A stretch of 32,000 nt of DNA, taken from positions 2,160,001 to 2,192,000 of the forward strand of contig NZ_CP195536.1 in NCBI RefSeq assembly GCF_051307035.1, in the 5' to 3' direction. The stretch comes from Psychrobacter sp. DM4 (GTDB taxonomy: Bacteria; Pseudomonadota; Gammaproteobacteria; Pseudomonadales; Moraxellaceae). This document shows, in pieces, positions 158 through 26,924 of this stretch (position 1 is the stretch's first letter; each line of letters starts with the position of its first letter). The notes under the pieces were generated by a model. The model had not been told where the DNA came from and made no database searches. It was given only the letters and a program-made list of their open reading frames with translations. Both the position numbers and the translations under genes were made by a program.

Positions 158-215
158 AAGCAGCTTGCTATGTTGTAGTGATACTCCTCGCATACTCCGG
201 TTAAGAAGTCGCGCT

Positions 216-1907: not shown

Positions 1908-1967
1908 GATTTTGAACCCAGACGCTACGACTATTCATGCACGAGACCCCTTATGCACAAGACCCCT

Positions 1968-2672
1968 ATGTACAAAATCCTTGTCATTGAAGATAATCCT
2001 GATATCGTCGCCAATATTTATGCTTTTTTTGAGCCCAAAGGTTTTGAGCTAGATAACGCTCATAATGGCATTAGCGGCCTGACGCTCGCCTCTAATAATC
2101 GTTATGACGTTATACTATTAGATGTGATGCTGCCGGGTATGAATGGCACCACTCTCTGTAAAAAGCTTCGAGAAGAATTACATGATAAAACACCCGTACT
2201 CATGCTAACGGCTCGCGATACGATTTTGGATAAAGTATCAGGTTTTGATAGTGGTGCTGATGATTATTTGGTCAAGCCTTTTTCACTGGTTGAGTTAGAA
2301 TCCCGTATCAAGGCGCTTATACGTCGACATCAAGACGAGCATTTTGAGCATAGTATAACGGTCGGTCAGTTATCCCTAAATGCTAATGAGCACACGATTA
2401 CTAGAGAAGGTAAATCACTAAAGCTTACGCCAACAGGGTTTAAAATACTGAATACACTAATGAGTGCGACACCTCGAGTCGTCAGCAAGCATGAGCTTGA
2501 GGAAAAAGTATGGGGTGAGGATATTCCAAGTAGCGACGCATTGCGGACTCATATGCATAGCGTACGTGTACAAGTCGATAAGCCATTTGCTAGGCCTATG
2601 ATAATGACCATATCAGGCGTCGGTTATCAAATTATCAACCCAGAGCACTCTGAGCTGCACGGCGATTTATGA
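1968..2672 (+). CDS. pmrA: OmpR/PhoB-family response regulator (PmrA/BasR-like)
   Basis: The receiver domain shows MYKILVIEDN...DVILLDVMLPGMNG...LMLTA...KPF, and the C terminus is a winged helix (LTPTGFKIL...GVGYQI). The gene sits between eptA and a histidine kinase, as in Acinetobacter pmrCAB. The ORF track start is 1953; ATG 1968 gives the usual M-x-ILVIED N terminus. The symbol is inferred from context and the PmrA-type boxes. Confidence 0.85.
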   Translation: MYKILVIEDNPDIVANIYAFFEPKGFELDNAHNGISGLTLASNNRYDVILLDVMLPGMNGTTLCKKLREELHDKTPVLMLTARDTILDKVSGFDSGADDYLVKPFSLVELESRIKALIRRHQDEHFEHSITVGQLSLNANEHTITREGKSLKLTPTGFKILNTLMSATPRVVSKHELEEKVWGEDIPSSDALRTHMHSVRVQVDKPFARPMIMTISGVGYQIINPEHSELHGDL

Positions 2673-2703
2673 CTGACTTTACCCCTTTAAATAAGTAAAT
2701 ACT

Positions 2704-4068: not shown

Positions 4069-4118
4069 TCACTTATCTTGTCACCTGTCGCCATCATTCT
4101 CACTATCATTCCAATCCT

Positions 4119-4135
4119 CTTAACGCTTTCTTAAT
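4119..4135 (+). promoter_or_regulatory. PmrA-box-like direct repeat (CTTAAC-N5-CTTAAT) upstream of dgkA-pap2
   Basis: The sequence is cttaac-gcttt-cttaat. A good -10, TATACT, lies at 4147-4152, 11 bp after the box. ATG 4189 is about 37 bp further on. The flank atcctcttaa is shared with the box at 5536. Confidence 0.6.
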
Positions 4136-4188
4136 GCGCCCTGCTCTATACTAAAAACCTATCATATATACGCTATGAAGTCATCTAT

Positions 4189-4662
4189 ATGGACACGACC
4201 AAAGCCGTCACTTGCAATATCAGATCAATAGACACCTACTCTGAAAATAAAAAACCATCTGACACTTTGGTTGTACTCGATAGCTATGCCAGTAGTGTCA
4301 AAGGTCAAAAAGGCCTTTCTCGTATCCTCAAAGCCACAGGTTATTCTATCGATGGGTTTAGAGCCGCTTATAAATTTGAGGCGGCTTTTAGACAGGTTTT
4401 GTGGCTCAATCTTGTATTGTTCATCGTTATTGTAACCATGCCTTTTGATATCAGCACAAGCATGATGCTGATAATTGTCTCTTTTTTGTCCCTTATTGTT
4501 GAGCTATTCAATACCGCTATTGAGGCTTGCGTCGATCACACTTCAACAGATCAACATCCCCTCGCTAAAATAGCCAAAGATGTCGGCTCTGCTGCGCAGT
4601 TTTTAGCATTGTTACTGCTATTTATTTTATGGCTACTCGCCTTGTCGCCCTTTTTATTCTAA
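4189..4662 (+). CDS. dgkA: Diacylglycerol kinase (DgkA family)
   Basis: The block GLSRILKATGYSIDGFRAAYKFEAAFRQ and the motifs ELFNTAIEACVD and KDVGSAA match the E. coli DgkA pattern, and three TM helices are present. Using ATG 4189 gives about 40 extra N-terminal residues relative to classical DgkA. An internal TTG (codon L of TLVVL, near 4267) is a possible alternative start. Confidence 0.85.
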   Translation: MDTTKAVTCNIRSIDTYSENKKPSDTLVVLDSYASSVKGQKGLSRILKATGYSIDGFRAAYKFEAAFRQVLWLNLVLFIVIVTMPFDISTSMMLIIVSFLSLIVELFNTAIEACVDHTSTDQHPLAKIAKDVGSAAQFLALLLLFILWLLALSPFLF

Positions 4663-4709
4663 ATCAGGTCCAAATAAATCGTGAGCTACTATATCTGAGG
4701 TAGGGTTTG

Positions 4710-5540
4710 ATGACTATAGAGCGTAATTTAAAAAGGTGTCATTCGACCAATTGGGTCTGGCTCAAACTACTATGCTTGACCATTATTGCAACCTTAGTCT
4801 CTGAGCATAGTCAATTCGACATTCGTATCAGTGAGTTTTTCTATAGCAATGGTCAGTGGCTGATACAAAAGGGCGCGCAGCCTTACGCCTTTATCTTTTA
4901 CGATGGCCCTAAAGCGTTATTAATCTTGTCAGCTCTCTATTTATTAGTCATATTAGTTATCAGATACAGACAACCTTCAAATACGACCGCTATCACTGGT
5001 AACCGTAAGTTTTATAAATTGATGACTCGTCTGTCGGCTCGTGAAATAAGTTACGTACTAAGTATGCTAGTCGTAGTACCTTCTACTATTGCGCTATTAA
5101 AAGGCGTAACTCATGTAAGCTGTCCCAATCATTTAATAGCTTTTGGCGGTGATTTGCCCTATCTCAGTCTATGGCAAAACATGGTCGCAAGCACGCCAGC
5201 CAAGTGCTTCCCAGCCGCTCATGCCAGCGCAAGTTTTTCTTTATATGGGTTAGCTTTTTTGCCTGCTCTTTATGAGTATCGTTATCGAATATTTGAGATA
5301 GTGACCGTCTTAGGTTGGACAATGGGGCTCTATAAAATGCTCTTTGGCGATCATTTCTTTAGTCATACTTTAGTCTCAATGCTGCTATCACTGACGATTG
5401 CGTGTACGCTGGCTGCTATATTTTTCAAGGACAAATCTACTCATAAAGCTCTAAATAAAACATTGAGCCGTACAAAACGCTATAAAACGTCCGCTTTAAT
5501 AAAAACAATGACGCTGTCCAAAACAGACTCATCCTCTTAA
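4710..5540 (+). CDS. PAP2-superfamily membrane phosphatase (lipid phosphatase-like)
   Basis: This is a polytopic membrane protein with PAP2-like blocks: LKGVTHVSCP (KX6-CP instead of KX6RP), FPAAHAS (the PSGH position) and GDHFFSHTLVS (the C3 position). The ORF track begins at TTG 4707, with ATG at 4710. The family call is moderately confident; whether it is catalytically competent is uncertain. Confidence 0.7.
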   Translation: MTIERNLKRCHSTNWVWLKLLCLTIIATLVSEHSQFDIRISEFFYSNGQWLIQKGAQPYAFIFYDGPKALLILSALYLLVILVIRYRQPSNTTAITGNRKFYKLMTRLSAREISYVLSMLVVVPSTIALLKGVTHVSCPNHLIAFGGDLPYLSLWQNMVASTPAKCFPAAHASASFSLYGLAFLPALYEYRYRIFEIVTVLGWTMGLYKMLFGDHFFSHTLVSMLLSLTIACTLAAIFFKDKSTHKALNKTLSRTKRYKTSALIKTMTLSKTDSSS

Positions 5541-10457: not shown

Positions 10458-10901
10458 TCAACGCTTAAAGCGTCTGATACCACTTGCCACTACGCCAAAC
10501 AGCTCAAGCGAGCCCTTAACTTCAATGTCAGTATAATCATCATTGAGCGAGCGCAAAATGATCGTCTCCCCTAATATCAATTGCTTGGCAGCAAAACCGT
10601 CATCGACTAATGCAATTACGATGTCTTTATTACTCGCCGTCAACGACCTGTCCACCACCAAAATATCGTTGGGATAGATACCAATATCTATCATGCTATC
10701 GCCTTCTACTTCGACGAGATACGTCGTTGCTGGATGGCGAATGAGCAAGGTATTAAGATCAATACGATTTTGCACGTAGTCGGTTGCAGGACTTGGAAAC
10801 CCTGCTTTGACTCTATCGCTGTATAAGGACAAAAGGACAGGTTTGCCCTCATCCGTCAGTTTGCCTATTATTTTTACCGTCATAGTTGCGCCTGTTCTCA
10901 C
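10458..10901 (-). CDS. umuD: UmuD-like S24 peptidase subunit of DNA polymerase V
   Basis: VKAGFPSPATDY aligns with E. coli UmuD VQCGFPSPAADY, giving an Ala-Gly cleavage site. GDSM carries the catalytic Ser, and the catalytic Lys region is FAAKQL. GTG 10901 and ATG 10883 (MTVKII...) are both possible starts. Confidence 0.9.
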   Translation of the reverse strand: MRTGATMTVKIIGKLTDEGKPVLLSLYSDRVKAGFPSPATDYVQNRIDLNTLLIRHPATTYLVEVEGDSMIDIGIYPNDILVVDRSLTASNKDIVIALVDDGFAAKQLILGETIILRSLNDDYTDIEVKGSLELFGVVASGIRRFKR

Positions 10902-10925
10902 TTCGAAAGAATTAACCTTAATAGG

Positions 10926-12227
10926 CTAGTGTACCTTTGGTAGCTGATTGATATTAGTAGTGTAGCAAGGCGATAGCATCTCGCGACTCATCTGCCACGT
11001 TTGTTTGTCCTTGATGCCTTCGCTCGCGATAAAGACCGCTCCTTGATTATGACGGTTCTGTCCGTACTTTTTATTGAGCTCGTCCATGAGTGCGCTGATC
11101 TCCTCACTTTGAGTTGAAGTCTGCTTATCTTTTGAATCATCATTAGCGAATAAATCTAGCTGCACCTCATCATGCTGGCATAAGTCCAGTAGCATGACGC
11201 CAGCCTTAGCATAGCGAACGTTTTCTTTATAAATGATTTTGAGCACTTGCCGCGCGGCCAATATCATTACCCGAGTATCCGCCGTCGGTGTCACAAATTG
11301 GTATTGACCCGATATCGCCGTATAAGTTTCTGACTGATTAAAGGGACTATTCATAGAAAATATACTGAGATAATGACAAACGCTATTTTGTTGACGTAGT
11401 TTGTTCGCAGCGTTTGCCACATGACTACAGATCGACTCGCTGAGCTCATTAGGGCAAGTAACACGGCGCGAAAAAGAGCGTGAAGAGATAATTTGCTTTT
11501 TGGGCTCTACGCTCTCAATGCCGATACAAGACTGCCCGTTCAGCTCCAAGCAGGTGCGCTCTAATACTACGCCGAAGTGCTGACGAATCTTGCCAGGCTC
11601 ACAAACCGCCAATTGATGAACGGTATGAATACCCAGAGCATTTAACCTCAACTTGTAGCGCCGACCGACACCCCATAGCTCGCCCACATCCGTAATTTGC
11701 ATCAAACGGCGTATCCACCTCAGACTCTCAAGCACGCAGATGCCATGAGTCGCAGGGTATTTTTTTGCCGCCTGATTGGCAAGTTTTGCCATAGTTTTGG
11801 TGCTACCGATACCGACGCTGACCGCGATACCGGTATGGCTCTCTATAATCATTTTGAGCTTGCCAGCGTAAGCCTTTAGGTCTTGCATGGCGACGGGATA
11901 ATCCGCCAAATACAAGAACGCTTCATCGATAGAATACACCTCAACCGTCGGACACAACGTCTCTATCGTCGTCATGACCCGCTGCGACATATCAGCATAA
12001 AGCGTATAGTTGGAGCTAAAAACCGTAATGTTGTTTGCGGTACAAAAGTCTTTTACCTGAAAATAGGGTACTGCCATTTTGATACCCAGACGCTTTGCTT
12101 CAGAGGAGCGCGCCACCACGCAGCCATCATTATTCGATAAGACAACGACGGGCTTATCCTTTAAATCAGGACGAAATAGCTTCTCACAGTTGGCATAAAA
12201 GCTGTTGCAATCGACGAGCGCATACAT
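10926..12227 (-). CDS. umuC: UmuC, Y-family DNA polymerase V catalytic subunit
   Basis: The N terminus MYALVDCNSFYANCEKLFRPDLKDKPVVVLSNNDGCVVARS and the YSIDEAF and GIGSTKTMAKLAN blocks are canonical for UmuC/MucB-type Y-family polymerases. Confidence 0.92.
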   Translation of the reverse strand: MYALVDCNSFYANCEKLFRPDLKDKPVVVLSNNDGCVVARSSEAKRLGIKMAVPYFQVKDFCTANNITVFSSNYTLYADMSQRVMTTIETLCPTVEVYSIDEAFLYLADYPVAMQDLKAYAGKLKMIIESHTGIAVSVGIGSTKTMAKLANQAAKKYPATHGICVLESLRWIRRLMQITDVGELWGVGRRYKLRLNALGIHTVHQLAVCEPGKIRQHFGVVLERTCLELNGQSCIGIESVEPKKQIISSRSFSRRVTCPNELSESICSHVANAANKLRQQNSVCHYLSIFSMNSPFNQSETYTAISGQYQFVTPTADTRVMILAARQVLKIIYKENVRYAKAGVMLLDLCQHDEVQLDLFANDDSKDKQTSTQSEEISALMDELNKKYGQNRHNQGAVFIASEGIKDKQTWQMSREMLSPCYTTNINQLPKVH

Positions 12228-14781: not shown

Positions 14782-15633
14782 TTATTGATTGACGGTGATA
14801 TCTAGCGTAACACGGCGGTTGGGCTGCAAGCAATCAATCTCTTGCTGGCGTGGCAGGTTGGTTGAGCACTGTACAATAGGCTGCAACTCCCCTGCTCCCG
14901 TTGCTATTATAGTGTTAGGATTGACGCCTTGATTGACAAGGTAGTTGGCAACGGCGCGCGCACGCTGGGTAGACAAGTTCATATTGTAAGCGTCATCACC
15001 CTTACGATCAGTGTGTCCGGTAATCATAATTTGGCTATCGCCTCTTTGTTGATATTGCCTTAAGGTTTGGGCTAGCCCATCAAGCTCCTCTCTACCTTGT
15101 GGTAAGACATCTTGCACCGTTGACTTGTCAAATGCGAATAGAGCATCAGCGTTTAAGTTGATACGCTCTGGTGCTGGTTGCATAGTAGGCACTGACGCTA
15201 CCATCACTGGGTTCGTTTGCATAACAGCCATTGATTGAGGCGGGCAATCAGCGGGACTCCAATAGAACTCTTGACCCTTGTACTCCTTATCAAAGATGAC
15301 TTTGTACTGGCAAACTTTGACTTGCTGGTTGTTGTCGTAGAATTTGAGAATATAGTCCCATTCACGAGCCTTATAACTCTCGCTAAAGTGTGGCGGACCA
15401 ATAAGCTGATAGAGATCATCTTTGCTTATTCCTGGTCTTATCTTGGCAAGATCGTCGACATCAGCGATGGTGCCCTCTTCTCTCCAAGCAGTATTCTGTT
15501 CTGGAAAGACTAAATCACTGGCGCTCACGCGGCCATCGTCTGTCAAGTTGGTACTTATGTTTCGAGTACACCCTGTGACCGAGAGCAGTAATACGGTGGC
15601 GAGCGCGCCGTAGCAATATACAGATTGTTTCAT
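14782..15633 (-). CDS. tpgA: TpgA-like lipoprotein (BamE/SmpA_OmlA-like N-domain + OmpA_C peptidoglycan-binding domain)
   Basis: The lipobox is LLSVTGC. The N-domain ISKDDLYQLIGPPHF...WDYILKF is BamE-like, and the C-domain TGHTDRKGDDAYNMNLSTQRARAVANYL is OmpA_C-like. The gene lies immediately downstream of the TAA gene on the same strand, matching the AtaA-TpgA arrangement reported for Acinetobacter sp. Tol 5. Confidence 0.8.
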   Translation of the reverse strand: MKQSVYCYGALATVLLLSVTGCTRNISTNLTDDGRVSASDLVFPEQNTAWREEGTIADVDDLAKIRPGISKDDLYQLIGPPHFSESYKAREWDYILKFYDNNQQVKVCQYKVIFDKEYKGQEFYWSPADCPPQSMAVMQTNPVMVASVPTMQPAPERINLNADALFAFDKSTVQDVLPQGREELDGLAQTLRQYQQRGDSQIMITGHTDRKGDDAYNMNLSTQRARAVANYLVNQGVNPNTIIATGAGELQPIVQCSTNLPRQQEIDCLQPNRRVTLDITVNQ

Positions 15634-15714: not shown

Positions 15715-18700
15715 TTAAAAATGGAAACCTGCACCAACTGCACCGCCTGCATTCCCTTCTGAGTCTGCTGTACCATTCGCTTTTATGACCCAGCGACCGT
15801 TGTCAGATACTTTAGAGAGACCGATGGCAACAGCGCTTTGACCATTGTAGGTTGCAATACCGCCGCCCACCATAGCTTTGCCTGGAATATAAGCTTGTGG
15901 TAGTGAAGACATAGCCATTGCAGCTGATATACCCGCGTTAGCACCGTCTTCCACATCGTTAATCTTATAACCTAAGTCATTCATATTGTTGACAAGTCGA
16001 TTATCAACAGCTCTAAGCTGTGACACGTTAACCGCATCTGAGTCTGCTGTTCCTGCGGCAACACCTGTCACTTGACGGTATACCTCGTTGTTTGCATTAC
16101 CGACAGCTACTGCGCCTGTTGTGCTCGTAGTAGCCGCGATAGCTGCGTCGTTGACAGCGCCATAACCTGCAATGCCTGCGCCTGTCGTCGCTCCAGAACC
16201 TGTACCCAGTACCACTGAACCTTCAACCGTTTCGGTCACATTATTGCCTAGTACAAAGGCATCATTACTATTTACAGTATTGTTATTACCTACTGAGTAG
16301 CTATTGTTACCATCGATGACACTTGGGTCGCCAAACGCACCTGAATTGTTACCATTAACGACGTTGCCTGTACCTACACTAATAGACTGGTTGCCATTCG
16401 CTTGAGCCCCATTACCGATAGCGATAGAAGAAGCGCCGCTAACTACGGAGCCGTTACCAACCACCACAGCGTTTGTCGCCTCTGAGGTCGCTTTGGTATT
16501 AAATCCTAATGCAACAGTATTGTCAGCGCCAGACTCTACAATAGCATTGACACCAATAGCTGTTGAGTTAGCACCGCCAGCACTTGAATCGTTGGTAACT
16601 CCCAAATCCCCTTCAGTACTCACCGCATTTGTGTGCGAGAATTTGACGCCTTGAGTATTCATTTTTTGAACCGTCTCGCCTATGGTTAGACGATCCGTCA
16701 CTTCTTGACCTTCGACATCATAAGTCAAGAATAAAGACTCTTCGTTATCATCATCTAGATTTCTATTGACGACTTGATCCGTTATGTTGACTGTCACCTC
16801 GTTTCCGTCTTGATCAGTCACATTCACGTCAGTAAGATTTTGAGCTATTACACTGTCGAGTTGACCCTTATTAACAGCATCATCTGCATTGATGCCATTA
16901 GCAACGTTACCAAGCGTAGTACCACCACTCACCACAAAGTCGTTGCCATCATCATCGGTATCTATGACTGCTTGAGTACCTGCTAATGATACGCTGTCGT
17001 AATTGACCGTGTTATCAGGGTTACGATCATATTGAACGCTACCTGCAGATAAATCGGTTAAATCTCCAGAAACTGTGTTGAGTTGACCAACAGTTGCTGC
17101 ATCTGTCGTAGCGACTCCATCAGCTAAATTGCTAAGTGCATTACCACCTGCATCAATACCTGCGGTGGTGATGCTTGGGCCGCCTGAAATAGTGAGACCA
17201 TCGGCACCATAAGTACTGGCATTCGTGCCATCGTTTACGACTAAGCCTGCACTGTTCAAAGTACTGTTACCAGTGACAACGCTATCGATATCGAGGTCTC
17301 TGGCAGTTGCAACCTCGTAGTTTGTAGAACCATCAGCATTCGTTGTCGTTGCGACAAGAATGTTCTCACCTTGAGTGACTGTACTCTTGGCTTGAGTCGC
17401 TGCTGTGTTAAGTGATGAGATTGCTCCATCGATAGTGTCAGCACCTGTACCGCCAATGTCAGTTGTGGTGACCACACCACCGTTATTCACAGCATTGCCG
17501 CCAATAATAGTGGCCAAAGACGCAGCGCTGGTATTCAACTGATCACCTGTAACGGCTTCTGTCGATCCCGCAGCTACAGTACCGTTAGCAACCCCTGTGA
17601 GTTGACGATTACCATCGGTTCCAGCAAAGCTGACGCTGTTACCACCCGTTTGAGCGCCAACGGTGATAACGCCAGTGCCCGCGTCTTGACGGACGATGCC
17701 TGTACGACCTGCAGCTAGATCATTGATGTCACCGGTATTGGTGCTGGTACGTGTGTCCAAGTTACCCAACGCGTCGCCGACGTTGGTAAACGGCGCCGCA
17801 TTCGTCCCGGTGTTGGTACCATCGTCAAGCACGTAGCTTGGTGCGGTCACAATGCCTGTTGTAGGATCGAAGGTTGAGTTACCGCCAAGGTTGGTTGCGA
17901 TAGAGCTTGCGGCGGTGTTCAACTGAGCGCCATTGATGGCGTCGGTTGAGTCGTCAGCAAGACTGCCGTCTGCTACGCTTGTGATCACGGTGTTACCGGC
18001 GTCGATACCTGTCGCTGTGAGGCTAGGACCGACTGGTGCATTGTTGTCATCTAAGAAGGTGACGCCTGCTTGGTTAAAGACGGTACTGGTGGTGCCATCG
18101 GTTGTGGTGAAGCCGTCAGCGCCATAGGTACTAGTGTTGGGGCCGTCGGTGACGTTGGTGCCTGTTGCACTGACGGTGGTGATGTTGCCGTTACCATCGT
18201 TAGCGGTGACGCTGTCAACGGTGATGGCGTCCGCTAAGCTGTAGTTGATGCCGTTGTCACTTACGGTGGTGACTAGGTTGGCATCACTGGTAAAGTCAAC
18301 GGTTTCACCCAACTGTACGTTGTCTTCATCGGCCTCGACGCCATTCGCGGTGATGTTAAAGCCAAGGTTGGACTGCGCTTGAACGTTAGCGATGTCACCG
18401 GTATTAGTGCTGGTACGTGTGTCCAAGTTACCCAACGCGTCGCCGACGTTGGTAAACGGCGCCGCATTCGTCCCGGTGTTGGTACCATCGTCAAGCACGT
18501 AGCTTGGTGCGGTCACAATGCCTGTTGTAGGATCGAAGGTTGAGTTACCGCCAAGGTTGGTTGCGATAGAGCTTGCGGCGGTGTTCAACTGAGCGCCATT
18601 GATGGCGTCGGTTGAGTCGTCAGCAAGACTGCCGTCTGCTACGCTTGTGATCACGGTGTTACCGGCGTCGACACCTGTCGCTGTGAGGCTAGGACCGACT

Positions 18701-21700
18701 GGTGCATTGTTGTCATCTAAGAAGGTGACGCCTGCTTGGTTAAAGACGGTACTGGTGGTGCCATCGGTTGTGGTGAAGCCGTCAGCGCCATAGGTACTAG
18801 TGTTGGGGCCGTCGGTGACGTTGGTGCCTGTTGCACTGACGGTGGTGATGTTGCCGTTACCATCGTTAGCGGTGACGCTGTCAACGGTGATGGCGTCCGC
18901 TAAGCTGTAGTTGATGCCGTTGTCACTTACGGTGGTGACTAGGTTGGCATCACTGGTAAAGTCAACGGTTTCACCCAACTGTACGTTGTCTTCATCGGCC
19001 TCGACGCCATTCGCGGTGATGTTAAAGCCAAGGTTGGACTGCGCTTGAACGTTAGCGATGTCACCGGTATTGGTGCTGGTACGTGTGTCCAAGTTACCCA
19101 ACGCGTCGCCGACGTTGGTAAACGGCGCCGCATTCGTCCCGGTGTTGGTACCATCGTCAAGCACGTAGCTTGGTGCGGTCACAATGCCTGTTGTAGGATC
19201 GAAGGTTGAGTTACCGCCAAGGTTGGTTGCGATAGAGCTTGCGGCGGTGTTCAACTGAGCGCCATTGATGGCGTCGGTTGAGTCGTCAGCAAGACTGCCG
19301 TCTGCTACGCTTGTGATCACGGTGTTACCGGCGTCGATACCTGTCGCTGTGAGGCTAGGACCGACTGGTGCATTGTTGTCATCTAAGAAGGTGACGCCTG
19401 CTTGGTTAAAGACGGTACTGGTGGTGCCATCGGTTGTGGTGAAGCCGTCAGCGCCATAGGTACTAGTGTTGGGGCCGTCGGTGACGTTGGTGCCTGTTGC
19501 ACTGACGGTGGTGATGTTGCCGTTACCATCGTTAGCGGTGACGCTGTCAACGGTGATGGCGTCCGCTAAGCTGTAGTTGATGCCGTTGTCACTTACGGTG
19601 GTGACTAGGTTGGCATCACTGGTAAAGTCAACGGTTTCACCCAACTGTACGTTGTCTTCATCGGCCTCGACGCCATTCGCGGTGATGTTAAAGCCAAGGT
19701 TGGACTGCGCTTGAACGTTAGCGATGTCACCGGTATTGGTGCTGGTACGTGTGTCCAAGTTACCCAACGCGTCGCCGACGTTGGTAAACGGCGCCGCATT
19801 CGTCCCGGTGTTGGTACCATCGTCAAGCACGTAGCTTGGTGCGGTCACAATGCCTGTTGTAGGATCGAAGGTTGAGTTACCGCCAAGGTTGGTTGCGATA
19901 GAGCTTGCGGCGGTGTTCAACTGAGCGCCATTGATGGCGTCGGTTGAGTCGTCAGCAAGACTGCCGTCTGCTACGCTTGTGATCACGGTGTTACCGGCGT
20001 CGACACCTGTCGCTGTGAGGCTAGGACCGACTGGTGCATTGTTGTCATCTAAGAAGGTGACGCCTGCTTGGTTAAAGACGGTACTGGTGGTGCCATCGGT
20101 TGTGGTGAAGCCGTCAGCGCCATAGGTACTAGTGTTGGGGCCGTCGGTGACGTTGGTGCCTGTTGCACTGACGGTGGTGATGTTGCCGTTACCATCGTTA
20201 GCGGTGACGCTGTCAACGGTGATGGCGTCCGCTAAGCTGTAGTTGATGCCGTTGTCACTTACGGTGGTGACTAGGTTGGCATCACTGGTAAAGTCAACGG
20301 TTTCACCCAACTGTACGTTGTCTTCATCGGCCTCGACGCCATTCGCGGTGATGTTAAAGCCAAGGTTGGACTGCGCTTGAACGTTAGCGATGTCACCGGT
20401 ATTGGTGCTGGTACGTGTGTCCAAGTTACCCAACGCGTCGCCGACGTTGGTAAACGGCGCCGCATTCGTCCCGGTGTTGGTACCATCGTCAAGCACGTAG
20501 CTTGGTGCGGTCACAATGCCTGTTGTAGGATCGAAGGTTGAGTTACCGCCAAGGTTGGTTGCGATAGAGCTTGCGGCGGTGTTCAACTGAGCGCCATTGA
20601 TGGCGTCGGTTGAGTCGTCAGCAAGACTGCCGTCTGCTACGCTTGTGATCACGGTGTTACCGGCGTCGATACCTGTCGCTGTGAGGCTAGGACCGACTGG
20701 TGCATTGTTGTCATCTAAGAAGGTGACGCCTGCTTGGTTAAAGACGGTACTGGTGGTGCCATCGGTTGTGGTGAAGCCGTCAGCGCCATAGGTACTAGTG
20801 TTGGGGCCGTCGGTGACGTTGGTGCCTGTTGCACTGACGGTGGTGATGTTGCCGTTACCATCGTTAGCGGTGACGCTGTCAACGGTGATGGCGTCCGCTA
20901 AGCTGTAGTTGATGCCGTTGTCACTTACGGTGGTGACTAGGTTGGCATCACTGGTAAAGTCAACGGTTTCACCCAACTGTACGTTGTCTTCATCGGCCTC
21001 GACGCCATTCGCGGTGATGTTAAAGCCAAGGTTGGACTGCGCTTGAACGTTAGCGATGTCACCGGTATTAGTGCTGGTACGTGTGTCCAAGTTACCCAAC
21101 GCGTCGCCGACGTTGGTAAACGGCGCCGCATTCGTCCCGGTGTTGGTACCATCGTCAAGCACGTAGCTTGGTGCGGTCACAATGCCTGTTGTAGGATCGA
21201 AGGTTGAGTTACCGCCAAGGTTGGTTGCGATAGAGCTTGCGGCGGTGTTCAACTGAGCGCCATTGATGGCGTCGGTTGAGTCGTCAGCAAGACTGCCGTC
21301 TGCTACGCTTGTGATCACGGTGTTACCGGCGTCGACACCTGTCGCTGTGAGGCTAGGACCGACTGGTGCATTGTTGTCATCTAAGAAGGTGACGCCTGCT
21401 TGGTTAAAGACGGTACTGGTGGTGCCATCGGTTGTGGTGAAGCCGTCAGCGCCATAGGTACTAGTGTTGGGGCCGTCGGTGACGTTGGTGCCTGTTGCAC
21501 TGACGGTGGTGATGTTGCCGTTACCATCGTTAGCGGTGACGCTGTCAACGGTGATGGCGTCCGCTAAGCTGTAGTTGATGCCGTTGTCACTTACGGTGGT
21601 GACTAGGTTGGCATCACTGGTAAAGTCAACGGTTTCACCCAACTGTACGTTGTCTTCATCGGCCTCGACGCCATTCGCGGTGATGTTAAAGCCAAGGTTG

Positions 21701-24700
21701 GACTGCGCTTGAACGTTAGCGATGTCACCGGTATTGGTGCTGGTACGTGTGTCCAAGTTACCCAACGCGTCGCCGACGTTGGTAAACGGCGCCGCATTCG
21801 TCCCGGTGTTGGTACCATCGTCAAGCACGTAGCTTGGTGCGGTCACAATGCCTGTTGTAGGATCGAAGGTTGAGTTACCGCCAAGGTTGGTTGCGATAGA
21901 GCTTGCGGCGGTGTTCAACTGAGCGCCATTGATGGCGTCGGTTGAGTCGTCAGCAAGACTGCCGTCTGCTACGCTTGTGATCACGGTGTTACCGGCGTCG
22001 ATACCTGTCGCTGTGAGGCTAGGACCGACTGGTGCATTGTTGTCATCTAAGAAGGTGACGCCTGCTTGGTTAAAGACGGTACTGGTGGTGCCATCGGTTG
22101 TGGTGAAGCCGTCAGCGCCATAGGTACTAGTGTTGGGGCCGTCGGTGACGTTGGTGCCTGTTGCACTGACGGTGGTGATGTTGCCGTTACCATCGTTAGC
22201 GGTGACGCTGTCAACGGTGATGGCGTCCGCTAAGCTGTAGTTGATGCCGTTGTCACTTACGGTGGTGACTAGGTTGGCATCACTGGTAAAGTCAACGGTT
22301 TCACCCAACTGTACGTTGTCTTCATCGGCCTCGACGCCATTCGCGGTGATGTTAAAGCCAAGGTTGGACTGCGCTTGAACGTTAGCGATGTCACCGGTAT
22401 TGGTGCTGGTACGTGTGTCCAAGTTACCCAACGCGTCGCCGACGTTGGTAAACGGCGCCGCATTCGTCCCGGTGTTGGTACCATCGTCAAGCACGTAGCT
22501 TGGTGCGGTCACAATGCCTGTTGTAGGATCGAAGGTTGAGTTACCGCCAAGGTTGGTTGCGATAGAGCTTGCGGCGGTGTTCAACTGAGCGCCATTGATG
22601 GCGTCGGTTGAGTCGTCAGCAAGACTGCCGTCTGCTACGCTTGTGATCACGGTGTTACCGGCGTCGACACCTGTCGCTGTGAGGCTAGGACCGACTGGTG
22701 CATTGTTGTCATCTAAGAAGGTGACGCCTGCTTGGTTAAAGACGGTACTGGTGGTGCCATCGGTTGTGGTGAAGCCGTCAGCGCCATAGGTACTAGTGTT
22801 GGGGCCGTCGGTGACGTTGGTGCCTGTTGCACTGACGGTGGTGATGTTGCCGTTACCATCGTTAGCGGTGACGCTGTCAACGGTGATGGCGTCCGCTAAG
22901 CTGTAGTTGATGCCGTTGTCACTTACGGTGGTGACTAGGTTGGCATCACTGGTAAAGTCAACGGTTTCACCCAACTGTACGTTGTCTTCATCGGCCTCGA
23001 CGCCATTCGCGGTGATGTTAAAGCCAAGGTTGGACTGCGCTTGAACGTTAGCGATGTCACCGGTATTGGTGCTGGTACGTGTGTCCAAGTTACCCAACGC
23101 GTCGCCGACGTTGGTAAACGGCGCCGCATTCGTCCCGGTGTTGGTACCATCGTCAAGCACGTAGCTTGGTGCGGTCACAATGCCTGTTGTAGGATCGAAG
23201 GTTGAGTTACCGCCAAGGTTGGTTGCGATAGAGCTTGCGGCGGTGTTCAACTGAGCGCCATTGATGGCGTCGGTTGAGTCGTCAGCAAGACTGCCGTCTG
23301 CTACGCTTGTGATCACGGTGTTACCGGCGTCGATACCTGTCGCTGTGAGGCTAGGACCGACTGGTGCATTGTTGTCATCTAAGAAGGTGACGCCTGCTTG
23401 GTTAAAGACGGTACTGGTGGTGCCATCGGTTGTGGTGAAGCCGTCAGCGCCATAGGTACTAGTGTTGGGGCCGTCGGTGACGTTGGTGCCTGTTGCACTG
23501 ACGGTGGTGATGTTGCCGTTACCATCGTTAGCGGTGACGCTGTCAACGGTGATGGCGTCCGCTAAGCTGTAGTTGATGCCGTTGTCACTTACGGTGGTGA
23601 CTAGGTTGGCATCACTGGTAAAGTCAACGGTTTCACCCAACTGTACGTTGTCTTCATCGGCCTCGACGCCATTCGCGGTGATGTTAAAGCCAAGGTTGGA
23701 CTGCGCTTGAACGTTAGCGATGTCACCGGTATTGGTGCTGGTACGTGTGTCCAAGTTACCCAACGCGTCGCCGACGTTGGTAAACGGCGCCGCATTCGTC
23801 CCGGTGTTGGTACCATCGTCAAGCACGTAGCTTGGTGCGGTCACAATGCCTGTTGTAGGATCGAAGGTTGAGTTACCGCCAAGGTTGGTTGCGATAGAGC
23901 TTGCGGCGGTGTTCAACTGAGCGCCATTGATGGCGTCGGTTGAGTCGTCAGCAAGACTGCCGTCTGCTACGCTTGTGATCACGGTGTTACCGGCGTCGAT
24001 ACCTGTCGCTGTGAGGCTAGGACCGACTGGTGCATTGTTGTCATCTAAGAAGGTGACGCCTGCTTGGTTAAAGACGGTACTGGTGGTGCCATCGGTTGTG
24101 GTGAAGCCGTCAGCGCCATAGGTACTAGTGTTGGGGCCGTCGGTGACGTTGGTGCCTGTTGCACTGACGGTGGTGATGTTGCCGTTACCATCGTTAGCGG
24201 TGACGCTGTCAACGGTGATGGCGTCCGCTAAGCTGTAGTTGATGCCGTTGTCACTTACGGTGGTGACTAGGTTGGCATCACTGGTAAAGTCAACGGTTTC
24301 ACCCAACTGTACGTTGTCTTCATCGGCCTCGACGCCATTCGCGGTGATGTTAAAGCCAAGGTCTGCTGCCGTCTGAGCAGCATTTGCAGCGTTTTGCGCA
24401 TTTGTCACATTATTGTTAGTTGTCGTCAGCTGACCGAAGTTCACTGCATCTGTAGCAACTGTGCCTGCTGCAACACCCGTAATTTTATTATTATTTAAAT
24501 TAGCACCACCGTTTAGATTAGATGCACCAGTGACAGTCAACGATCCTGCATTCATCGCACCAGTTGAAGTGACTGTCGTAAATGTCGGTGTCGCTGAAGT
24601 ACCGATAGTGACATTATTACCTGCACGAGTGATCTCAACATTATTGCCATCGATGAATGTAACCGTATCACCTGCCGCTACTGCGGTTGACGTATCAGTA

Positions 24701-26154
24701 TTTGCACGCAGTCTAAAGGTCTGGTTTTGTAAGCTTGTGATATTACCTGTGTTCGTCGTAGTGCGACCGTCTATGTTTCCAAGTGCCGCACCCACATTGT
24801 TAAAAGTTGCACCGTCTACGTTGTAAGTCGGTAAGCTAACCGCGCCGTTATTCGCAGTATAAGTAGATCCACCACCAAGCGCCGCTGCAGTATCAGTTCC
24901 TTGACGATTGGTTCTTGTGTTCTGCTCTGTCAATTGAGCGACGTTCACCGCATCAGTCGCAGCTGATCCACCTGCGACATTCTGAATACGTCTGGTCGCA
25001 GCAGCGGTGCCGACAGACACCACACCATTTGCAGGTACTACAGCGACATTAGTCAAGAACGAGTTGCCAGCTGGTGTGGTTGTCGTTGAGCCTGCACCCA
25101 AAGCGACAGAGTTAGCGATGTTTGCATTGGCAGTGGCACCGATACTAATACTAGAAGTTCCAGTCGCTTCAGAGGACTGACCAATGGCGATGGCACGAGT
25201 GTTAGTGGCTCTTGCACCGCCTGCGTTATTACCACCACTACCGATGGCGATAGCTCCCTGACCACTAGTTTGAGCGGCGCCGCCGCCAGCTGTACCGCCG
25301 CCTATGGCAACAGAGGATTGACCTGTTGAGCTTGCAGCACGACCGATGCTGACACCGTATTGCGTATTACTACTAGTGTCCGCACCGAGGGCAACGGTGT
25401 TTTGAGCTGCTGCATTAGCATTTTCGCCAAGGGCATAAGCATTGGCGCTAGAAGCCCTAGAACCTGCGCCAATAGCAACAGAGTTTGCAGCTGAAGCCTC
25501 TGCACCAGACATGAGAGCTAAGGCATGGTTACCTGAGGCAATAGCACCATTTAAGCCATTAGTTGTGGCATTTCCACTTGACCCGATAGCAACAGAACCA
25601 ATACCATTGGCAATTGGGCTATCTAAGTTTGGAGTTAAACCACTACCAATAGCGACCCCACCTGCACCAGTAGATGTCGTAGGATTACTATTAAAATTTG
25701 AACCAATGATAACCGCTTGTGCAGCATTACTATCTGCAATAATATCATTACCGATAACGGTTGATTGTGAACCTGCTGCTTCAAGATTTGCGCCTATTGC
25801 AATTGTCTCTGCACCTGAGGCACAAGCAACATTACCCACACCTCCATTTCCAATAGCTATCGAAGAAGCTTCAGTACCAAAACCAGTAGCATCCCTTGTA
25901 CAGTTTGCAAAAGTCGACCCGCCGCCTACTTCATAGCCTGCTACTGCCTGCATACTAAATCCAGTAGCAGCCATTCCCACACATAATGCACTTAATTTTA
26001 CTAGTCGTGCACCTTCTGCCATAGCGCCTGTAGAAGGACTAGCGCCAGAGCTGACAGTACCACTCGAAGATTTGCCGCGGCTCTTAGCATATTCAGCGAC
26101 AGCCGTAAAACAGCCTAATGAGCGGTTCCAAACAACTTTAAAGTTACGATTCAT
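15715..26154 (-). CDS. Giant trimeric autotransporter adhesin (Ata/AtaA/YadA-family), 3479 aa
   Basis: The N terminus carries an extended signal peptide region (MNRNFKVVWNRSLGCFTAVAEYAKSRGK ... SMQAVA, about aa 1-72). YadA-type head repeats (xSIAIGxxAxAxG) occupy about nt 25000-25938, and neck motifs are present (RRIQNVAGGSAATDAVNVAQL). A long repetitive stalk follows, then a second head-like repeat block at about nt 16190-16590. The C terminus is a YadA-type beta-barrel anchor (...GISAAMAMSSLPQ...GRWVIKANGTADSEGNAGGAVGAGFHF). The Shine-Dalgarno AAGGAAGAAG precedes the ATG. Confidence 0.95.
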   Translation of the reverse strand: MNRNFKVVWNRSLGCFTAVAEYAKSRGKSSSGTVSSGASPSTGAMAEGARLVKLSALCVGMAATGFSMQAVAGYEVGGGSTFANCTRDATGFGTEASSIAIGNGGVGNVACASGAETIAIGANLEAAGSQSTVIGNDIIADSNAAQAVIIGSNFNSNPTTSTGAGGVAIGSGLTPNLDSPIANGIGSVAIGSSGNATTNGLNGAIASGNHALALMSGAEASAANSVAIGAGSRASSANAYALGENANAAAQNTVALGADTSSNTQYGVSIGRAASSTGQSSVAIGGGTAGGGAAQTSGQGAIAIGSGGNNAGGARATNTRAIAIGQSSEATGTSSISIGATANANIANSVALGAGSTTTTPAGNSFLTNVAVVPANGVVSVGTAAATRRIQNVAGGSAATDAVNVAQLTEQNTRTNRQGTDTAAALGGGSTYTANNGAVSLPTYNVDGATFNNVGAALGNIDGRTTTNTGNITSLQNQTFRLRANTDTSTAVAAGDTVTFIDGNNVEITRAGNNVTIGTSATPTFTTVTSTGAMNAGSLTVTGASNLNGGANLNNNKITGVAAGTVATDAVNFGQLTTTNNNVTNAQNAANAAQTAADLGFNITANGVEADEDNVQLGETVDFTSDANLVTTVSDNGINYSLADAITVDSVTANDGNGNITTVSATGTNVTDGPNTSTYGADGFTTTDGTTSTVFNQAGVTFLDDNNAPVGPSLTATGIDAGNTVITSVADGSLADDSTDAINGAQLNTAASSIATNLGGNSTFDPTTGIVTAPSYVLDDGTNTGTNAAPFTNVGDALGNLDTRTSTNTGDIANVQAQSNLGFNITANGVEADEDNVQLGETVDFTSDANLVTTVSDNGINYSLADAITVDSVTANDGNGNITTVSATGTNVTDGPNTSTYGADGFTTTDGTTSTVFNQAGVTFLDDNNAPVGPSLTATGIDAGNTVITSVADGSLADDSTDAINGAQLNTAASSIATNLGGNSTFDPTTGIVTAPSYVLDDGTNTGTNAAPFTNVGDALGNLDTRTSTNTGDIANVQAQSNLGFNITANGVEADEDNVQLGETVDFTSDANLVTTVSDNGINYSLADAITVDSVTANDGNGNITTVSATGTNVTDGPNTSTYGADGFTTTDGTTSTVFNQAGVTFLDDNNAPVGPSLTATGVDAGNTVITSVADGSLADDSTDAINGAQLNTAASSIATNLGGNSTFDPTTGIVTAPSYVLDDGTNTGTNAAPFTNVGDALGNLDTRTSTNTGDIANVQAQSNLGFNITANGVEADEDNVQLGETVDFTSDANLVTTVSDNGINYSLADAITVDSVTANDGNGNITTVSATGTNVTDGPNTSTYGADGFTTTDGTTSTVFNQAGVTFLDDNNAPVGPSLTATGIDAGNTVITSVADGSLADDSTDAINGAQLNTAASSIATNLGGNSTFDPTTGIVTAPSYVLDDGTNTGTNAAPFTNVGDALGNLDTRTSTNTGDIANVQAQSNLGFNITANGVEADEDNVQLGETVDFTSDANLVTTVSDNGINYSLADAITVDSVTANDGNGNITTVSATGTNVTDGPNTSTYGADGFTTTDGTTSTVFNQAGVTFLDDNNAPVGPSLTATGVDAGNTVITSVADGSLADDSTDAINGAQLNTAASSIATNLGGNSTFDPTTGIVTAPSYVLDDGTNTGTNAAPFTNVGDALGNLDTRTSTNTGDIANVQAQSNLGFNITANGVEADEDNVQLGETVDFTSDANLVTTVSDNGINYSLADAITVDSVTANDGNGNITTVSATGTNVTDGPNTSTYGADGFTTTDGTTSTVFNQAGVTFLDDNNAPVGPSLTATGIDAGNTVITSVADGSLADDSTDAINGAQLNTAASSIATNLGGNSTFDPTTGIVTAPSYVLDDGTNTGTNAAPFTNVGDALGNLDTRTSTNTGDIANVQAQSNLGFNITANGVEADEDNVQLGETVDFTSDANLVTTVSDNGINYSLADAITVDSVTANDGNGNITTVSATGTNVTDGPNTSTYGADGFTTTDGTTSTVFNQAGVTFLDDNNAPVGPSLTATGVDAGNTVITSVADGSLADDSTDAINGAQLNTAASSIATNLGGNSTFDPTTGIVTAPSYVLDDGTNTGTNAAPFTNVGDALGNLDTRTSTNTGDIANVQAQSNLGFNITANGVEADEDNVQLGETVDFTSDANLVTTVSDNGINYSLADAITVDSVTANDGNGNITTVSATGTNVTDGPNTSTYGADGFTTTDGTTSTVFNQAGVTFLDDNNAPVGPSLTATGIDAGNTVITSVADGSLADDSTDAINGAQLNTAASSIATNLGGNSTFDPTTGIVTAPSYVLDDGTNTGTNAAPFTNVGDALGNLDTRTSTNTGDIANVQAQSNLGFNITANGVEADEDNVQLGETVDFTSDANLVTTVSDNGINYSLADAITVDSVTANDGNGNITTVSATGTNVTDGPNTSTYGADGFTTTDGTTSTVFNQAGVTFLDDNNAPVGPSLTATGVDAGNTVITSVADGSLADDSTDAINGAQLNTAASSIATNLGGNSTFDPTTGIVTAPSYVLDDGTNTGTNAAPFTNVGDALGNLDTRTSTNTGDIANVQAQSNLGFNITANGVEADEDNVQLGETVDFTSDANLVTTVSDNGINYSLADAITVDSVTANDGNGNITTVSATGTNVTDGPNTSTYGADGFTTTDGTTSTVFNQAGVTFLDDNNAPVGPSLTATGIDAGNTVITSVADGSLADDSTDAINGAQLNTAASSIATNLGGNSTFDPTTGIVTAPSYVLDDGTNTGTNAAPFTNVGDALGNLDTRTSTNTGDINDLAAGRTGIVRQDAGTGVITVGAQTGGNSVSFAGTDGNRQLTGVANGTVAAGSTEAVTGDQLNTSAASLATIIGGNAVNNGGVVTTTDIGGTGADTIDGAISSLNTAATQAKSTVTQGENILVATTTNADGSTNYEVATARDLDIDSVVTGNSTLNSAGLVVNDGTNASTYGADGLTISGGPSITTAGIDAGGNALSNLADGVATTDAATVGQLNTVSGDLTDLSAGSVQYDRNPDNTVNYDSVSLAGTQAVIDTDDDGNDFVVSGGTTLGNVANGINADDAVNKGQLDSVIAQNLTDVNVTDQDGNEVTVNITDQVVNRNLDDDNEESLFLTYDVEGQEVTDRLTIGETVQKMNTQGVKFSHTNAVSTEGDLGVTNDSSAGGANSTAIGVNAIVESGADNTVALGFNTKATSEATNAVVVGNGSVVSGASSIAIGNGAQANGNQSISVGTGNVVNGNNSGAFGDPSVIDGNNSYSVGNNNTVNSNDAFVLGNNVTETVEGSVVLGTGSGATTGAGIAGYGAVNDAAIAATTSTTGAVAVGNANNEVYRQVTGVAAGTADSDAVNVSQLRAVDNRLVNNMNDLGYKINDVEDGANAGISAAMAMSSLPQAYIPGKAMVGGGIATYNGQSAVAIGLSKVSDNGRWVIKANGTADSEGNAGGAVGAGFHF
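17725..24362 (-). repeat. Tandem array of about 9.97 x 666-bp (222-aa) near-identical in-frame units within the TAA stalk
   Basis: Shadow ORFs recur every 666 bp (17933, 18599, ... 23927). My base-by-base comparison of units 1, 2 and 6 found only two variable positions. At protein level all ten units are identical except for one I/V site. Confidence 0.95.
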
Positions 26155-26924
26155 AATGCTTCTTCCTTGAGGTATATGGAGTCGATATAGTTGATAAATG
26201 TCTATAGCCAGCAGTTTTAAACCAAAAAATAATGACGTCTTTATTACTCAAAATATTTTGCTTAAAAATACATATAGGCTGCAAATAAATTAATAGTCTG
26301 TAAGTGATTCTATTTGAATATAACAAAAAATCAACAACTTTATTCATATATCAATCAATTGTAATTTTTTATGTGTTTTTTTTAAATCTGGGTGAATAGC
26401 ATATATCCCTACTTAAGAGCAACTTAATAGATTCATAATAATTTTATGTATATATACTTAAACGAATATTAATATCTAATATTATAGATATAAGAATAAA
26501 TATATTTATTTTTTGATATATAACTTTTGACTTTATTTTTTACTACTATTACGACGCCCCTTTTAAGTAGCAGATGGTAATGCCTCTCACGCTGACTTTG
26601 CTAAGTTAATGGCGTCACTACCGTTGCTAGCGCAGTCCTAGGGTTCATCTGACATCAAGATAATACCGATATCTTTTATAACGACTTTTTAGGACATAAA
26701 TAAATAAGTCATATATCGTTTTATATTATTGATATATTCATTTTATTAAATATAGAGAGTAATAGAGAAGTTTTTTGAAGGCACAAGTAGCATTAGCCTT
26801 ATAGAATAAGACTAGGAAGGGAGATTAATTAGGAAGAGTGTTTTGGTCGCGGCGGAATAATAGAATTTTTAAACCAGCTTGTATCTGATAAATAAATGCC
26901 AAGCTATTGATGATTATAGAATAA
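26155..26924 (-). promoter_or_regulatory. 770-bp extremely AT-rich upstream region of the TAA gene
   Basis: No credible ORF is present. By my count 26401-26520 has 18 G+C in 120 nt. The region contains many A/T tracts (T8 at 26376-26383) and AT palindromes. It must contain the TAA promoter, but I could not pin down -35/-10 elements. Confidence 0.6.
26412..26428 (+). promoter_or_regulatory. PmrA-box-like direct repeat (CTTAAG-N5-CTTAAT) in the TAA upstream region
   Basis: The sequence is cttaag-agcaa-cttaat. It has the same plus-strand orientation as the other three boxes, which is inverted relative to the TAA gene. It lies 258-274 bp upstream of the TAA ATG. A degenerate copy, cttaaa-cgaat-attaat, lies at 26457-26473. 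Confidence 0.35.

Follow-up and report, generated by a model that had tools for sequence, protein, structure and literature searches.

The window analysed here is a 32,000-nucleotide stretch of the Psychrobacter sp. DM4 genome. It carries a complete gene for an AtaA-like trimeric autotransporter adhesin (TAA), the exact protein sequence of which is found on a 2.84-Mb NCBI contig of this strain. Pfam searches revealed an extended signal peptide region (ESPR), a YadA-like membrane anchor and 14 stretches of the YadA_stalk (neck) family (E = 2.4e-99), bearing out the original prediction that this is a TAA, and all PDB matches are themselves TAAs (AtaA, BpaA, VompD, UspA1, SadA, BadA and Hia). Judged by these domains, the reading frame encodes an intact adhesin of the type Vc secretion class, predicted to form a trimer. 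The N-terminal region is 68–76% identical to other Psychrobacter TAA heads in a word-indexed protein search, in which the listed matches are at most ∼1430 amino acids long. Four further YadA_head stretches are present in the C-terminal 669 residues, scoring 24.7 bits, just below the cut-off of 25.

Directly downstream of the adhesin gene and in the same orientation, after an 81-nt gap in which no terminator-like site was found, lies a gene with a BamE-like N-terminal domain and an OmpA_C peptidoglycan-binding domain. This is the architecture of TpgA, which is encoded in an operon with ataA (PMC12523085). On the other side, the intergenic region upstream of the adhesin gene is presumed to be its promoter and regulatory region. 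No recombinase-type gene was identified among the flanking reading frames scanned, no simple-sequence tract was reported by the tandem-repeat scan of the adhesin gene, and the window contains no TAA pseudogene; nothing seen at this locus suggests a programmed switch.

Table 1. Features of the adhesin locus, in window coordinates.
Feature	Position	Strand	Residues	Basis or detail
TpgA-like gene	14782..15633	-		Pfam: BamE 1.1e-13, OmpA 5.4e-23
TAA gene, complete, AtaA-like	15715..26154	-	3479 in total	ORF list and Pfam
YadA-like membrane anchor	15718..15900	-	3419–3479	PF03895, E = 2.6e-16, 59.9 bits (cut-off 22.7)
Diverged GIN-type module, C-terminal of the array	17023..17346	-	2937–3044	BLASTP
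Tandem array, 9.97 × 666 bp	17725..24362	-	598–2810	Lag-666 identity and column comparison
Array unit starts (plus-strand coordinates)	17725, 18391, 19057, 19723, 20389, 21055, 21721, 22387, 23053, 23719			
Site B, unit offset 15	17740+666k (17740..23734)	-		G A G G G A G G G G
Site A, unit offset 281	18006+666k (18006..24000)	-		T C T C T C T C T T
Unique N-terminal part (head and first necks)	24363..26016	-	47–597	YadA_head, 5 stretches (31.8 bits); YadA_stalk, 2
Diverged paralogue (neck-FGG half of unit)	24742..25098	-	353–471	BLASTP
ESPR extended signal peptide	26017..26154	-	1–46	PF13018, E = 1.2e-14
Intergenic region upstream of the TAA gene, 770 bp, AT-rich (∼31% GC)	26155..26924			Composition profile and sequence

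Between the unique N-terminal region and the C-terminal 669 residues, self-comparison of the window shows a sharp-edged block at lag 666. This block is 6638 bp long, or 63.6% of the 10440-bp reading frame, and its units (666 bp, encoding 222 residues) are arranged head to tail, the last one, starting at 23719, being 644 bp long. Both the span and the unit length are as originally predicted, as is the share of the gene (∼64%). Column-by-column comparison of the ten units identified exactly two variable columns, GAGGGAGGGG and TCTCTCTCTT; only two such sites had been claimed, and their coordinates, alleles and codon effects all match the alignment and the gene frame. In the minus-strand frame, site B falls at the third position of a threonine codon (ACC/ACT) and is synonymous. 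Site A falls at the first codon position (ATC/GTC) and exchanges Ile for Val in TATG[I/V]DAGN, at the GIN motif G[I/V]DAGN; its C allele gives the sequence GTCGAC (SalI) at 18667, 19999, 21331 and 22663. Writing the states as (B,A), the unit types are a = (G,T) with Ile, b = (A,C) with Val and c = (G,C) with Val, and the order of types along the plus strand is a b a c a b a c a a. On average, units differ by 0.9 nt per 666 (∼99.9% identity). At a finer level, the array consists of ten 644-bp cores and nine 22-nt joints, GCTAACGTTCAAGCGCAGTCCA, which encode ANVQAQS and are absent from both array flanks. A tandem-repeat scan with a period limit of 500 missed the 666-bp array, and returned a nested 21-nt repeat occurring once per unit.

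Alignments to known TAA modules indicate that the order of elements within the 222-residue unit is a Trp-ring-like domain with Gly-Phe, a GIN domain, a neck, a short coiled coil and an FGG domain. The C-terminal stalk structure of AtaA (3WPA) is the best structural match, and aligns over the GIN, neck and FGG domains. In Acinetobacter Ata proteins, Trp-ring/GIN/neck/FGG modules can likewise be aligned with the unit, at an identity of only ∼32%, its start GFNITANG corresponding to GWNLASNG or GWTVSANG in these modules. Apart from YadA_stalk and a weak match to Gp18_dom_I, a Pfam scan of the unit (E up to 1) gave no hits, including none to a Trp-ring family. The unit had been described as a GIN segment followed by a neck-like segment; both are indeed present, but it is larger than this, with the Trp-ring-like start, an insertion of ∼37 residues in the GIN domain, and the FGG domain.

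A diverged relative of the unit had been proposed on the C-terminal side of the array, and BLASTP located it there, with 33% identity over 136 residues (unit residues 42–177 against C-flank residues 127–234, E = 1.4e-9). A second one is found on the N-terminal side, with 40% identity over 132 residues (unit residues 100–222 against N-flank residues 353–471, E = 4e-13). The view of the array as an amplified stalk module is supported, but the flanking paralogues are too diverged to be its source. Searches elsewhere gave no close relative: identity to any other protein was at most 56% in a search of 5.8 billion sequences, and none of the 23 loci found in a genome-contig scan with the unique C-terminal 669 residues carries the 666-bp unit (best 64–71% identity). 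A metagenome-contig scan with the unit yielded matches to the conserved neck motif only. In a search with TpgA, the closest other homologue is 76% identical, so that this search gave no nearer strain for a comparison of copy number. Faucicola contigs with identical TpgA and TAAs of 2877 and 2967 residues were considered as a copy-number pair and rejected, as they show mosaic divergence instead and are short-read assemblies. Parallel arrays, built from different modules, are found in other long-read Psychrobacter TAAs (732 bp × 6.8 at 99%, and 480 bp × 4 at 98%).

Because the copies are ∼99.9% alike, compared to 33–42% identity for the paralogous modules of the same protein and no more than 56% for any other match found, the array is best explained by one 222-residue stalk module in the AtaA-like TAA of DM4 having been amplified in tandem and in frame, recently and specifically in this lineage. 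I put the probability of this explanation at about 80%. Selection on the protein could in principle forbid change and hold the copies identical, and the module is structural, with a conservative Ile/Val exchange as the sole amino-acid change. However, silent positions are as uniform as replacement ones, with one synonymous difference in the whole array, and homologous modules elsewhere tolerate 45–65% divergence. The near-absence of synonymous differences refutes purifying selection as the cause of copy identity, and I give this idea virtually no credence.

The array could also owe its appearance to the assembly: the repeat would exist, but the count of ten copies, or the near-perfect identity, would have been made by the assembler or by polishing with multi-mapping reads. 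The complete array is found in one assembly only, on which the ten-copy count rests, and two markers per 2.7 kb offer an assembler little to anchor on. In addition, short-read assemblies of this locus and its relatives always break at such repeats, and one of the units in a related long-read assembly has a 1-nt deletion, possibly a read error. Against this, the array lies in a 2.84-Mb contig and is perfectly in frame, the states of its two variable sites recur in an ordered, periodic way unlike noise, and independent samples break exactly at the predicted array edge. Three short-read contigs of independent origin match the window exactly and end at 17739 or 17754, 15–30 nt inside the array edge. 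This is where contigs would stop as an assembler enters a repeat, and I therefore consider the repeat to be real. An exact TpgA look-up returned four short Logan contigs, which support the array edge and not the array length. Taken together, an artefact appears improbable.

The arrangement of unit types also contains information on how the array was built. It is a higher-order repeat, in that a unit resembles those a multi-unit period away more than it does the adjacent ones: adjacent units are of the same type in 1 of 9 pairs, and this rises to 4 of 8 at lag 2 and to 5 of 6 at lag 4, a value reached by 18 of 1260 arrangements, although two sites underlie all of these lag statistics. The T/C alternation at site A is non-random, only 2 of 210 arrangements being as extreme. 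A nested history of 2-unit and 4-unit duplications is the unique most parsimonious class, with six events compared to eight without the 4-unit duplication, and all minimal histories (18/18) end in a 4-unit duplication. This favours the proposed 2664-bp duplication on top of a 1332-bp one, but the original wording, that the pattern implies it, is too strong: the 4-unit signal comes from one pair of units that have a synonymous allele (ACT) in common. Likewise, units 2–5 and 6–9 do share the same pattern, but a register of 1–4 and 5–8 fits equally well. With only two informative sites, the order of events is weakly constrained. Furthermore, the 22-nt joint is missing at both flanks; a simple L-X-X-R duplication would not account for this, which implies one or more additional events at an array edge.

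A single gene-conversion event, or parallel mutation, is an alternative to the 2664-bp step. In its extended form, the array would be older, ongoing gene conversion (concerted evolution) would have kept its units alike, and the 4-unit pattern would reflect either a parallel mutation or a short conversion tract. The b and c units differ at site B only, such that one conversion event also explains the second ACT, and the spacing of four for this pair has a 2/6 chance given the alternation, that is, with both copies on Val-type units. Unit 10, at the edge, is off both periodicities, as expected if array ends are less homogenised. This scenario nonetheless takes eight events, against six for duplications and point changes, and conversion by short tracts would tend to scramble the strict alternation over nine units. 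No relative was found with the DM4 unit at any copy number, which also speaks against an older array. I consider concerted evolution unlikely, albeit less so than an assembly artefact.

Under the favoured explanation, recent amplification, the copies probably arose as the 666-bp repeats underwent unequal homologous recombination or replication slippage. The steps would have involved one unit, then two units (producing the Ile/Val alternation), then four units (copying the ACT marker). Scaling from AtaA, where 3428 residues span 225 nm, each additional unit would lengthen the trimeric fibre by ∼15 nm. The array would then contribute ∼145 nm to a fibre of ∼220 nm and keep the N-terminal head at a great distance from the cell. 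Homology between the repeats would also be expected to destabilise copy number, with changes in multiples of 666 bp.

A more ambitious reading is that the array is an actively length-variable, periscope-like stalk, with natural cells differing in copy number and thereby tuning the projection of the head. Length would then change in quanta of one, two or four units (∼15, 29 or 58 nm). Two independent metagenome contigs end one base before site B, within 15 nt of the unique flank, which hints that the sequence branches there between G and A, i.e. that different units adjoin the flank in different cells. I regard this reading as possible but doubtful. If true, it would extend the periscope concept to multi-domain modules of trimeric fibres, outside its current definition.

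As an in-frame amplification of recent origin, the DM4 array belongs to a type already described for adhesins like AtaA and BadA; it is real but ordinary, and leaves the current understanding of TAAs unchanged. It does provide a clean example of how a giant bacterial adhesin lengthens, with one 222-residue module present ten times and a readable order of one-, two- and four-unit steps. It also illustrates why such genes come out broken or mis-sized in short-read assemblies, and nearly all database relatives are annotated as partial. Should copy number prove variable, the locus would offer a simple natural system for relating adhesion to the length of the fibre, in a bacterium that is cold-adapted and non-pathogenic, and a ready length series for AtaA-style engineering of cell immobilisation.

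The closest known system is AtaA of Acinetobacter sp. Tol 5, from the same family (Moraxellaceae), a protein of 3630 residues compared to 3479 for the DM4 TAA, and whose function is size-dependent. Both possess an ESPR, an N-terminal Ylhead and a YadA anchor, and in both a tpgA-like gene lies directly downstream. AtaA also has a C-terminal Ylhead, for which the C-terminal YadA_head stretches of DM4, with the sub-threshold score given above, are a candidate counterpart. In the AtaA Trp-rings, Trp is replaced by Phe or Leu (PMC3498257), in line with the Gly-Phe of the Trp-ring-like domain aligned in the DM4 unit. AtaA also contains long near-identical stalk repeats, of 58–243 residues, comparable to the ten DM4 units with their one variable residue. 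However, in AtaA six repeat groups form a mosaic, whereas DM4 has a single unit repeated strictly head to tail over 64% of the protein. The ∼37-residue GIN insertion and the low identity to Acinetobacter modules further set the DM4 unit apart.

BadA of Bartonella henselae is likewise a very long TAA with a repetitive neck/stalk, where four-domain blocks repeated 2–5 times were missed by Sanger and short-read sequencing and resolved by PacBio (PMC8859334). Its length varies among strains, which has been ascribed to recombination (PMC8859334). In contrast to DM4, its domains are 68–147 residues long and fall in several similarity classes, with pseudogene donors nearby, and the DM4 copies are far more uniform. 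In the BatA-type TAA of Brucellaceae, a TrpRing-GIN-neck module is perfectly repeated six times. Both the type of module and its GID motif are as in DM4, but the unit is shorter (∼113 residues), lacks FGG, is present in six copies, and belongs to an alphaproteobacterium.

For Cha, a TAA of the Haemophilus cryptic genospecies, entirely conserved tandem repeats have been described whose copy number alters adhesive activity (cited in PMC3498257 and PMC9704523); these repeats are 28 residues long, compared to the 222-residue multi-domain modules of DM4. Periscope proteins, such as Rib, SasG and Alpha C, have a stalk of DNA-identical repeats of more than 50 residues, the number of which shifts by homologous recombination and sets the projection of the tip domain (PMC9704523). 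The DM4 stalk resembles these as a tandem array of highly identical repeats above this length. The class is nevertheless defined as monomeric single-chain rods, with TAAs explicitly excluded (PMC9704523), and the DM4 protein falls on the other side of this definition, bearing all the sequence hallmarks of a TAA.

Compared with itself at a lag of 666 bp, the window shows a single, sharp-edged block of near-perfect identity, 6638 bp or 9.97 units in length, contained in frame within the 3479-aa ORF of the trimeric autotransporter adhesin (TAA). When the ten units are stacked, exactly two columns vary. Site B (offset 15) reads G A G G G A G G G G across the units and is silent in the minus-strand gene frame (ACC/ACT, Thr), while site A (offset 281) reads T C T C T C T C T T and exchanges Ile for Val (ATC/GTC) in TATG[I/V]DAGN. 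The coordinates, alleles and codon effects of the original prediction were all reproduced by the lag comparison and the column stacking, and the full ten-unit alignment yielded no third varying column. The array is not reported by the tandem-repeat tool because its period limit is 500; all it returned from the array was a trivial 21-nt repeat in each unit. The Val allele at site A gives rise to GTCGAC, a SalI site, in alternate units, 1332 bp apart, and SalI sites are also present on the flanks; this pattern offers a simple restriction assay for the array structure.

Pfam identifies an ESPR extended signal peptide, 14 YadA_stalk (neck) stretches and a YadA-like anchor in the ORF. The unique N-terminal 597 aa additionally include a YadA head, and the unique C-terminal 669 aa include four necks and the anchor, with a candidate second head that is borderline (24.7 bits, for a cut-off of 25). 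Among solved structures, the unit matches the AtaA C-terminal stalk best (3WPA, E=8e-13), over the GIN motif, the neck and then an FGG-type segment, and all remaining matches are TAAs. Alignment to Acinetobacter Ata proteins gives a common module order, with the Ata motifs GWNL…/GWTV… (Trp-ring), …GPSITTAGIDA… (GIN), DAVNKGQL (neck) and …FGGGA…PTYNV…NVGDAL..LD (FGG). The DM4 unit starts with GFNITANG, and its Phe for Trp is reminiscent of AtaA, with twelve Trp-rings and Phe or Leu in place of Trp (PMC3498257). Its GIN domain has ∼37 additional residues. No Trp-ring family was matched in the Pfam scan of the unit, and this assignment is therefore by alignment only. The unit appears to be a four-part stalk module (Trp-ring-like/GIN/neck/FGG): the GIN and neck originally proposed are both present, but the unit is larger, with an FGG part indicated by the 3WPA match and the Ata alignment, and a Trp-ring-like part indicated by the Ata alignment.

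The 283-aa product of the gene 81 nt downstream of the TAA combines a BamE-like N domain with an OmpA domain (Pfam); no terminator-like site was found between the two genes. Its architecture matches that of TpgA, a partner of AtaA that binds peptidoglycan and whose gene shares an operon with ataA in Acinetobacter sp. Tol 5 (PMC12523085). The neighbours are ordinary chromosomal genes (EptA and a two-component pair, cytochromes, UmuDC, an acyl-CoA ligase, MoxR/TgpA), and the cluster around EptA resembles a lipid A modification/polymyxin-resistance module. The intergenic stretch upstream of the TAA start is AT-rich (∼31% GC versus 45–50% around it) and presumably regulatory, with A/T runs and no obvious simple-sequence tract.

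Positions of the array, its markers, neighbouring genes and related loci
Sequence	Feature	Position	Strand	Details
DM4 window	Array	17725-24362	-	666-bp (222-aa) unit
DM4 window	Site A	18006+666k		T/C
DM4 window	Site B	17740+666k		G/A
DM4 window	SalI sites, array	18667, 19999, 21331, 22663		
DM4 window	SalI sites, flanks	15454, 25913		
DM4 window	TAA gene	15715-26154	-	
DM4 window	TpgA-like gene	14782-15633	-	
DM4 window	Intergenic stretch	26155-26924		770 bp
DM4 window	UmuD-like (Peptidase_S24) and UmuC-like (Y-family polymerase) pair	10458-12227	-	3.5 kb from adhesin operon
DM4 window	EptA-type phosphoethanolamine transferase, response regulator, histidine kinase, diacylglycerol kinase, PAP2 phosphatase	165-5540	+	
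L058, Psychrobacter GCA_904846145.1, 3.16-Mb contig	Array in tpgA-linked TAA	3401-8371		732-bp (244-aa) unit x6.8, 98.9-99.6% identity
L057, Psychrobacter raelei CP093310.2	Array in tpgA-linked 3333-aa TAA	7163-9089		480-bp (160-aa) unit x4, 98% identity
L060, Faucicola mancuniensis metagenome contig	TpgA and upstream TAA	1271-9904		TAA 2877 aa
L061, Faucicola mancuniensis metagenome contig	TpgA and upstream TAA	1001-9904		TAA 2967 aa

Over tpgA and the C-terminal portion of the TAA, three Logan short-read contigs, each from a different run, match the window exactly or almost exactly. One of these (ERR13858334) ends at 17754, the end expected for a k=31 assembler on entry to a repeat starting at 17725; the repeat is therefore present in independent samples. 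The other two (ERR13858645, ERR13858649) end at 17739, one base short of site B, with 15 nt of unique flank retained in the last 31-mer. Branching between G and A beside the flank would explain this stop, and suggests, as read from the contig ends only, that the terminal unit adjoining the flank differs between cells or strains. The count of ten copies comes from a single assembly, and is taken as assembled.

The units differ pairwise by a mean of 0.9 nt per 666 (0.13%), with equal uniformity at silent and replacement positions. This is of the same order as the 0–4 nt in 3–4 kb that separate independent contigs of the same strain type from the window. The relatives found for the unit are far more diverged: the GIN module directly C-terminal of the array, already noticed in the original observation, is 33% identical over 136 aa (E=1e-9), two further segments of the same TAA are 40–42% identical, and the top match in a search of 5.8 billion proteins, a fragment from Psychrobacter sp. 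JB385, reaches 56%. The uniformity therefore stems from recent copying or recombination-driven homogenisation and not from selection, in line with the recent expansion or gene conversion first proposed. The unit was absent from related loci among 185,579 species genomes and the metagenome collection, and the amplification is specific to the DM4 lineage. The most likely account, with a probability of about 80%, is unequal recombination or slippage between the 666-bp repeats, which would have amplified one Trp-ring-like/GIN/neck/FGG module stepwise and in frame. Scaled from AtaA (3428 aa for 225 nm), the array would lengthen the fibre by roughly 145 nm.

With unit types defined by sites B and A as a=(G,T), b=(A,C) and c=(G,C), the order is a b a c a b a c a a. 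Alternation of T and C across nine units is non-random, with equally extreme arrangements amounting to 2/210. Under a model allowing only tandem block duplications in any register and single-site changes, the minimum history from one founder unit takes six events, and a 4-unit duplication is the last step in all 18 minimal histories; the cost rises to eight events without 4-unit duplications, and to seven without 2-unit duplications. On these counts the nested history originally proposed, a 1332-bp step followed by a 2664-bp step, is the most parsimonious. The 4-unit signal, however, comes from one silent allele common to two units, and a single gene-conversion event supplying the second copy would give an equal outcome; once the alternation is taken as given and both alleles are placed on Val-type units, the chance of the 4-unit spacing is 2/6. 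The two sites are compatible with more than one register of the duplicated block.

The array can also be described as ten 644-bp cores separated by nine 22-nt joints (GCTAACGTTCAAGCGCAGTCCA, encoding ANVQAQS), one per internal junction. Simple duplication of a segment would leave the joint sequence beside one flank. The joint is found in neither flank of the array, and at least one edge has therefore changed since and is not the original duplication boundary, for instance through recombination with a diverged TAA. Such an exchange would fit the mosaic nature of TAA genes: Acinetobacter TAAs are what the N-terminal flank resembles, and a JB385 TAA is what the joint resembles.

Nearly all database homologues are labelled "partial" and end within repeats, and tpgA-linked TAAs in long-read Psychrobacter genomes frequently have arrays of their own. 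The 732-bp unit of L058 contains a collagen-like Gly-rich segment, and one copy of 731 nt causes a frameshift, splitting the gene into ORFs of 2478 and 1217 aa; either the gene is truly inactivated or the long reads carry an indel error. The 732-bp unit is a different module from the DM4 unit (36% identity over 84 aa only), and the arrays are independent amplifications. The P. raelei TAA also has longer dispersed repeats (lags of ∼1850 bp), and a two-partner-secretion haemagglutinin pair downstream. In JB385, two partial proteins on different contigs (P0003 and P0128; L006) both end in ...GNLVATVS, within a unit that shares 56% identity with that of DM4, and one contig spans 1106 bp only; a tandem array seems to have collapsed in this short-read assembly. 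The two Faucicola mancuniensis contigs encode identical TpgA proteins, but their TAAs are only 91–97% identical, with rearranged blocks; divergence is much faster in the passenger than in the partner gene. Among the arrays found in the compared set, that of DM4 is the longest and most uniform.

The phenomenon, protein family and module type are already known, and interest is modest unless copy-number variation within a population is demonstrated; in DM4, two markers record a tidy 1-2-4 unit history. BadA has its own four-domain blocks, repeated 2–5 times, which required PacBio to resolve and have been linked to recombination, and a Brucellaceae TAA possesses six perfect TrpRing-GIN-neck repeats. 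A review of periscope proteins considers that TAAs may act similarly, yet places them outside the definition. Repeat number alters adhesion by Cha, and AtaA requires a minimum length for its function.
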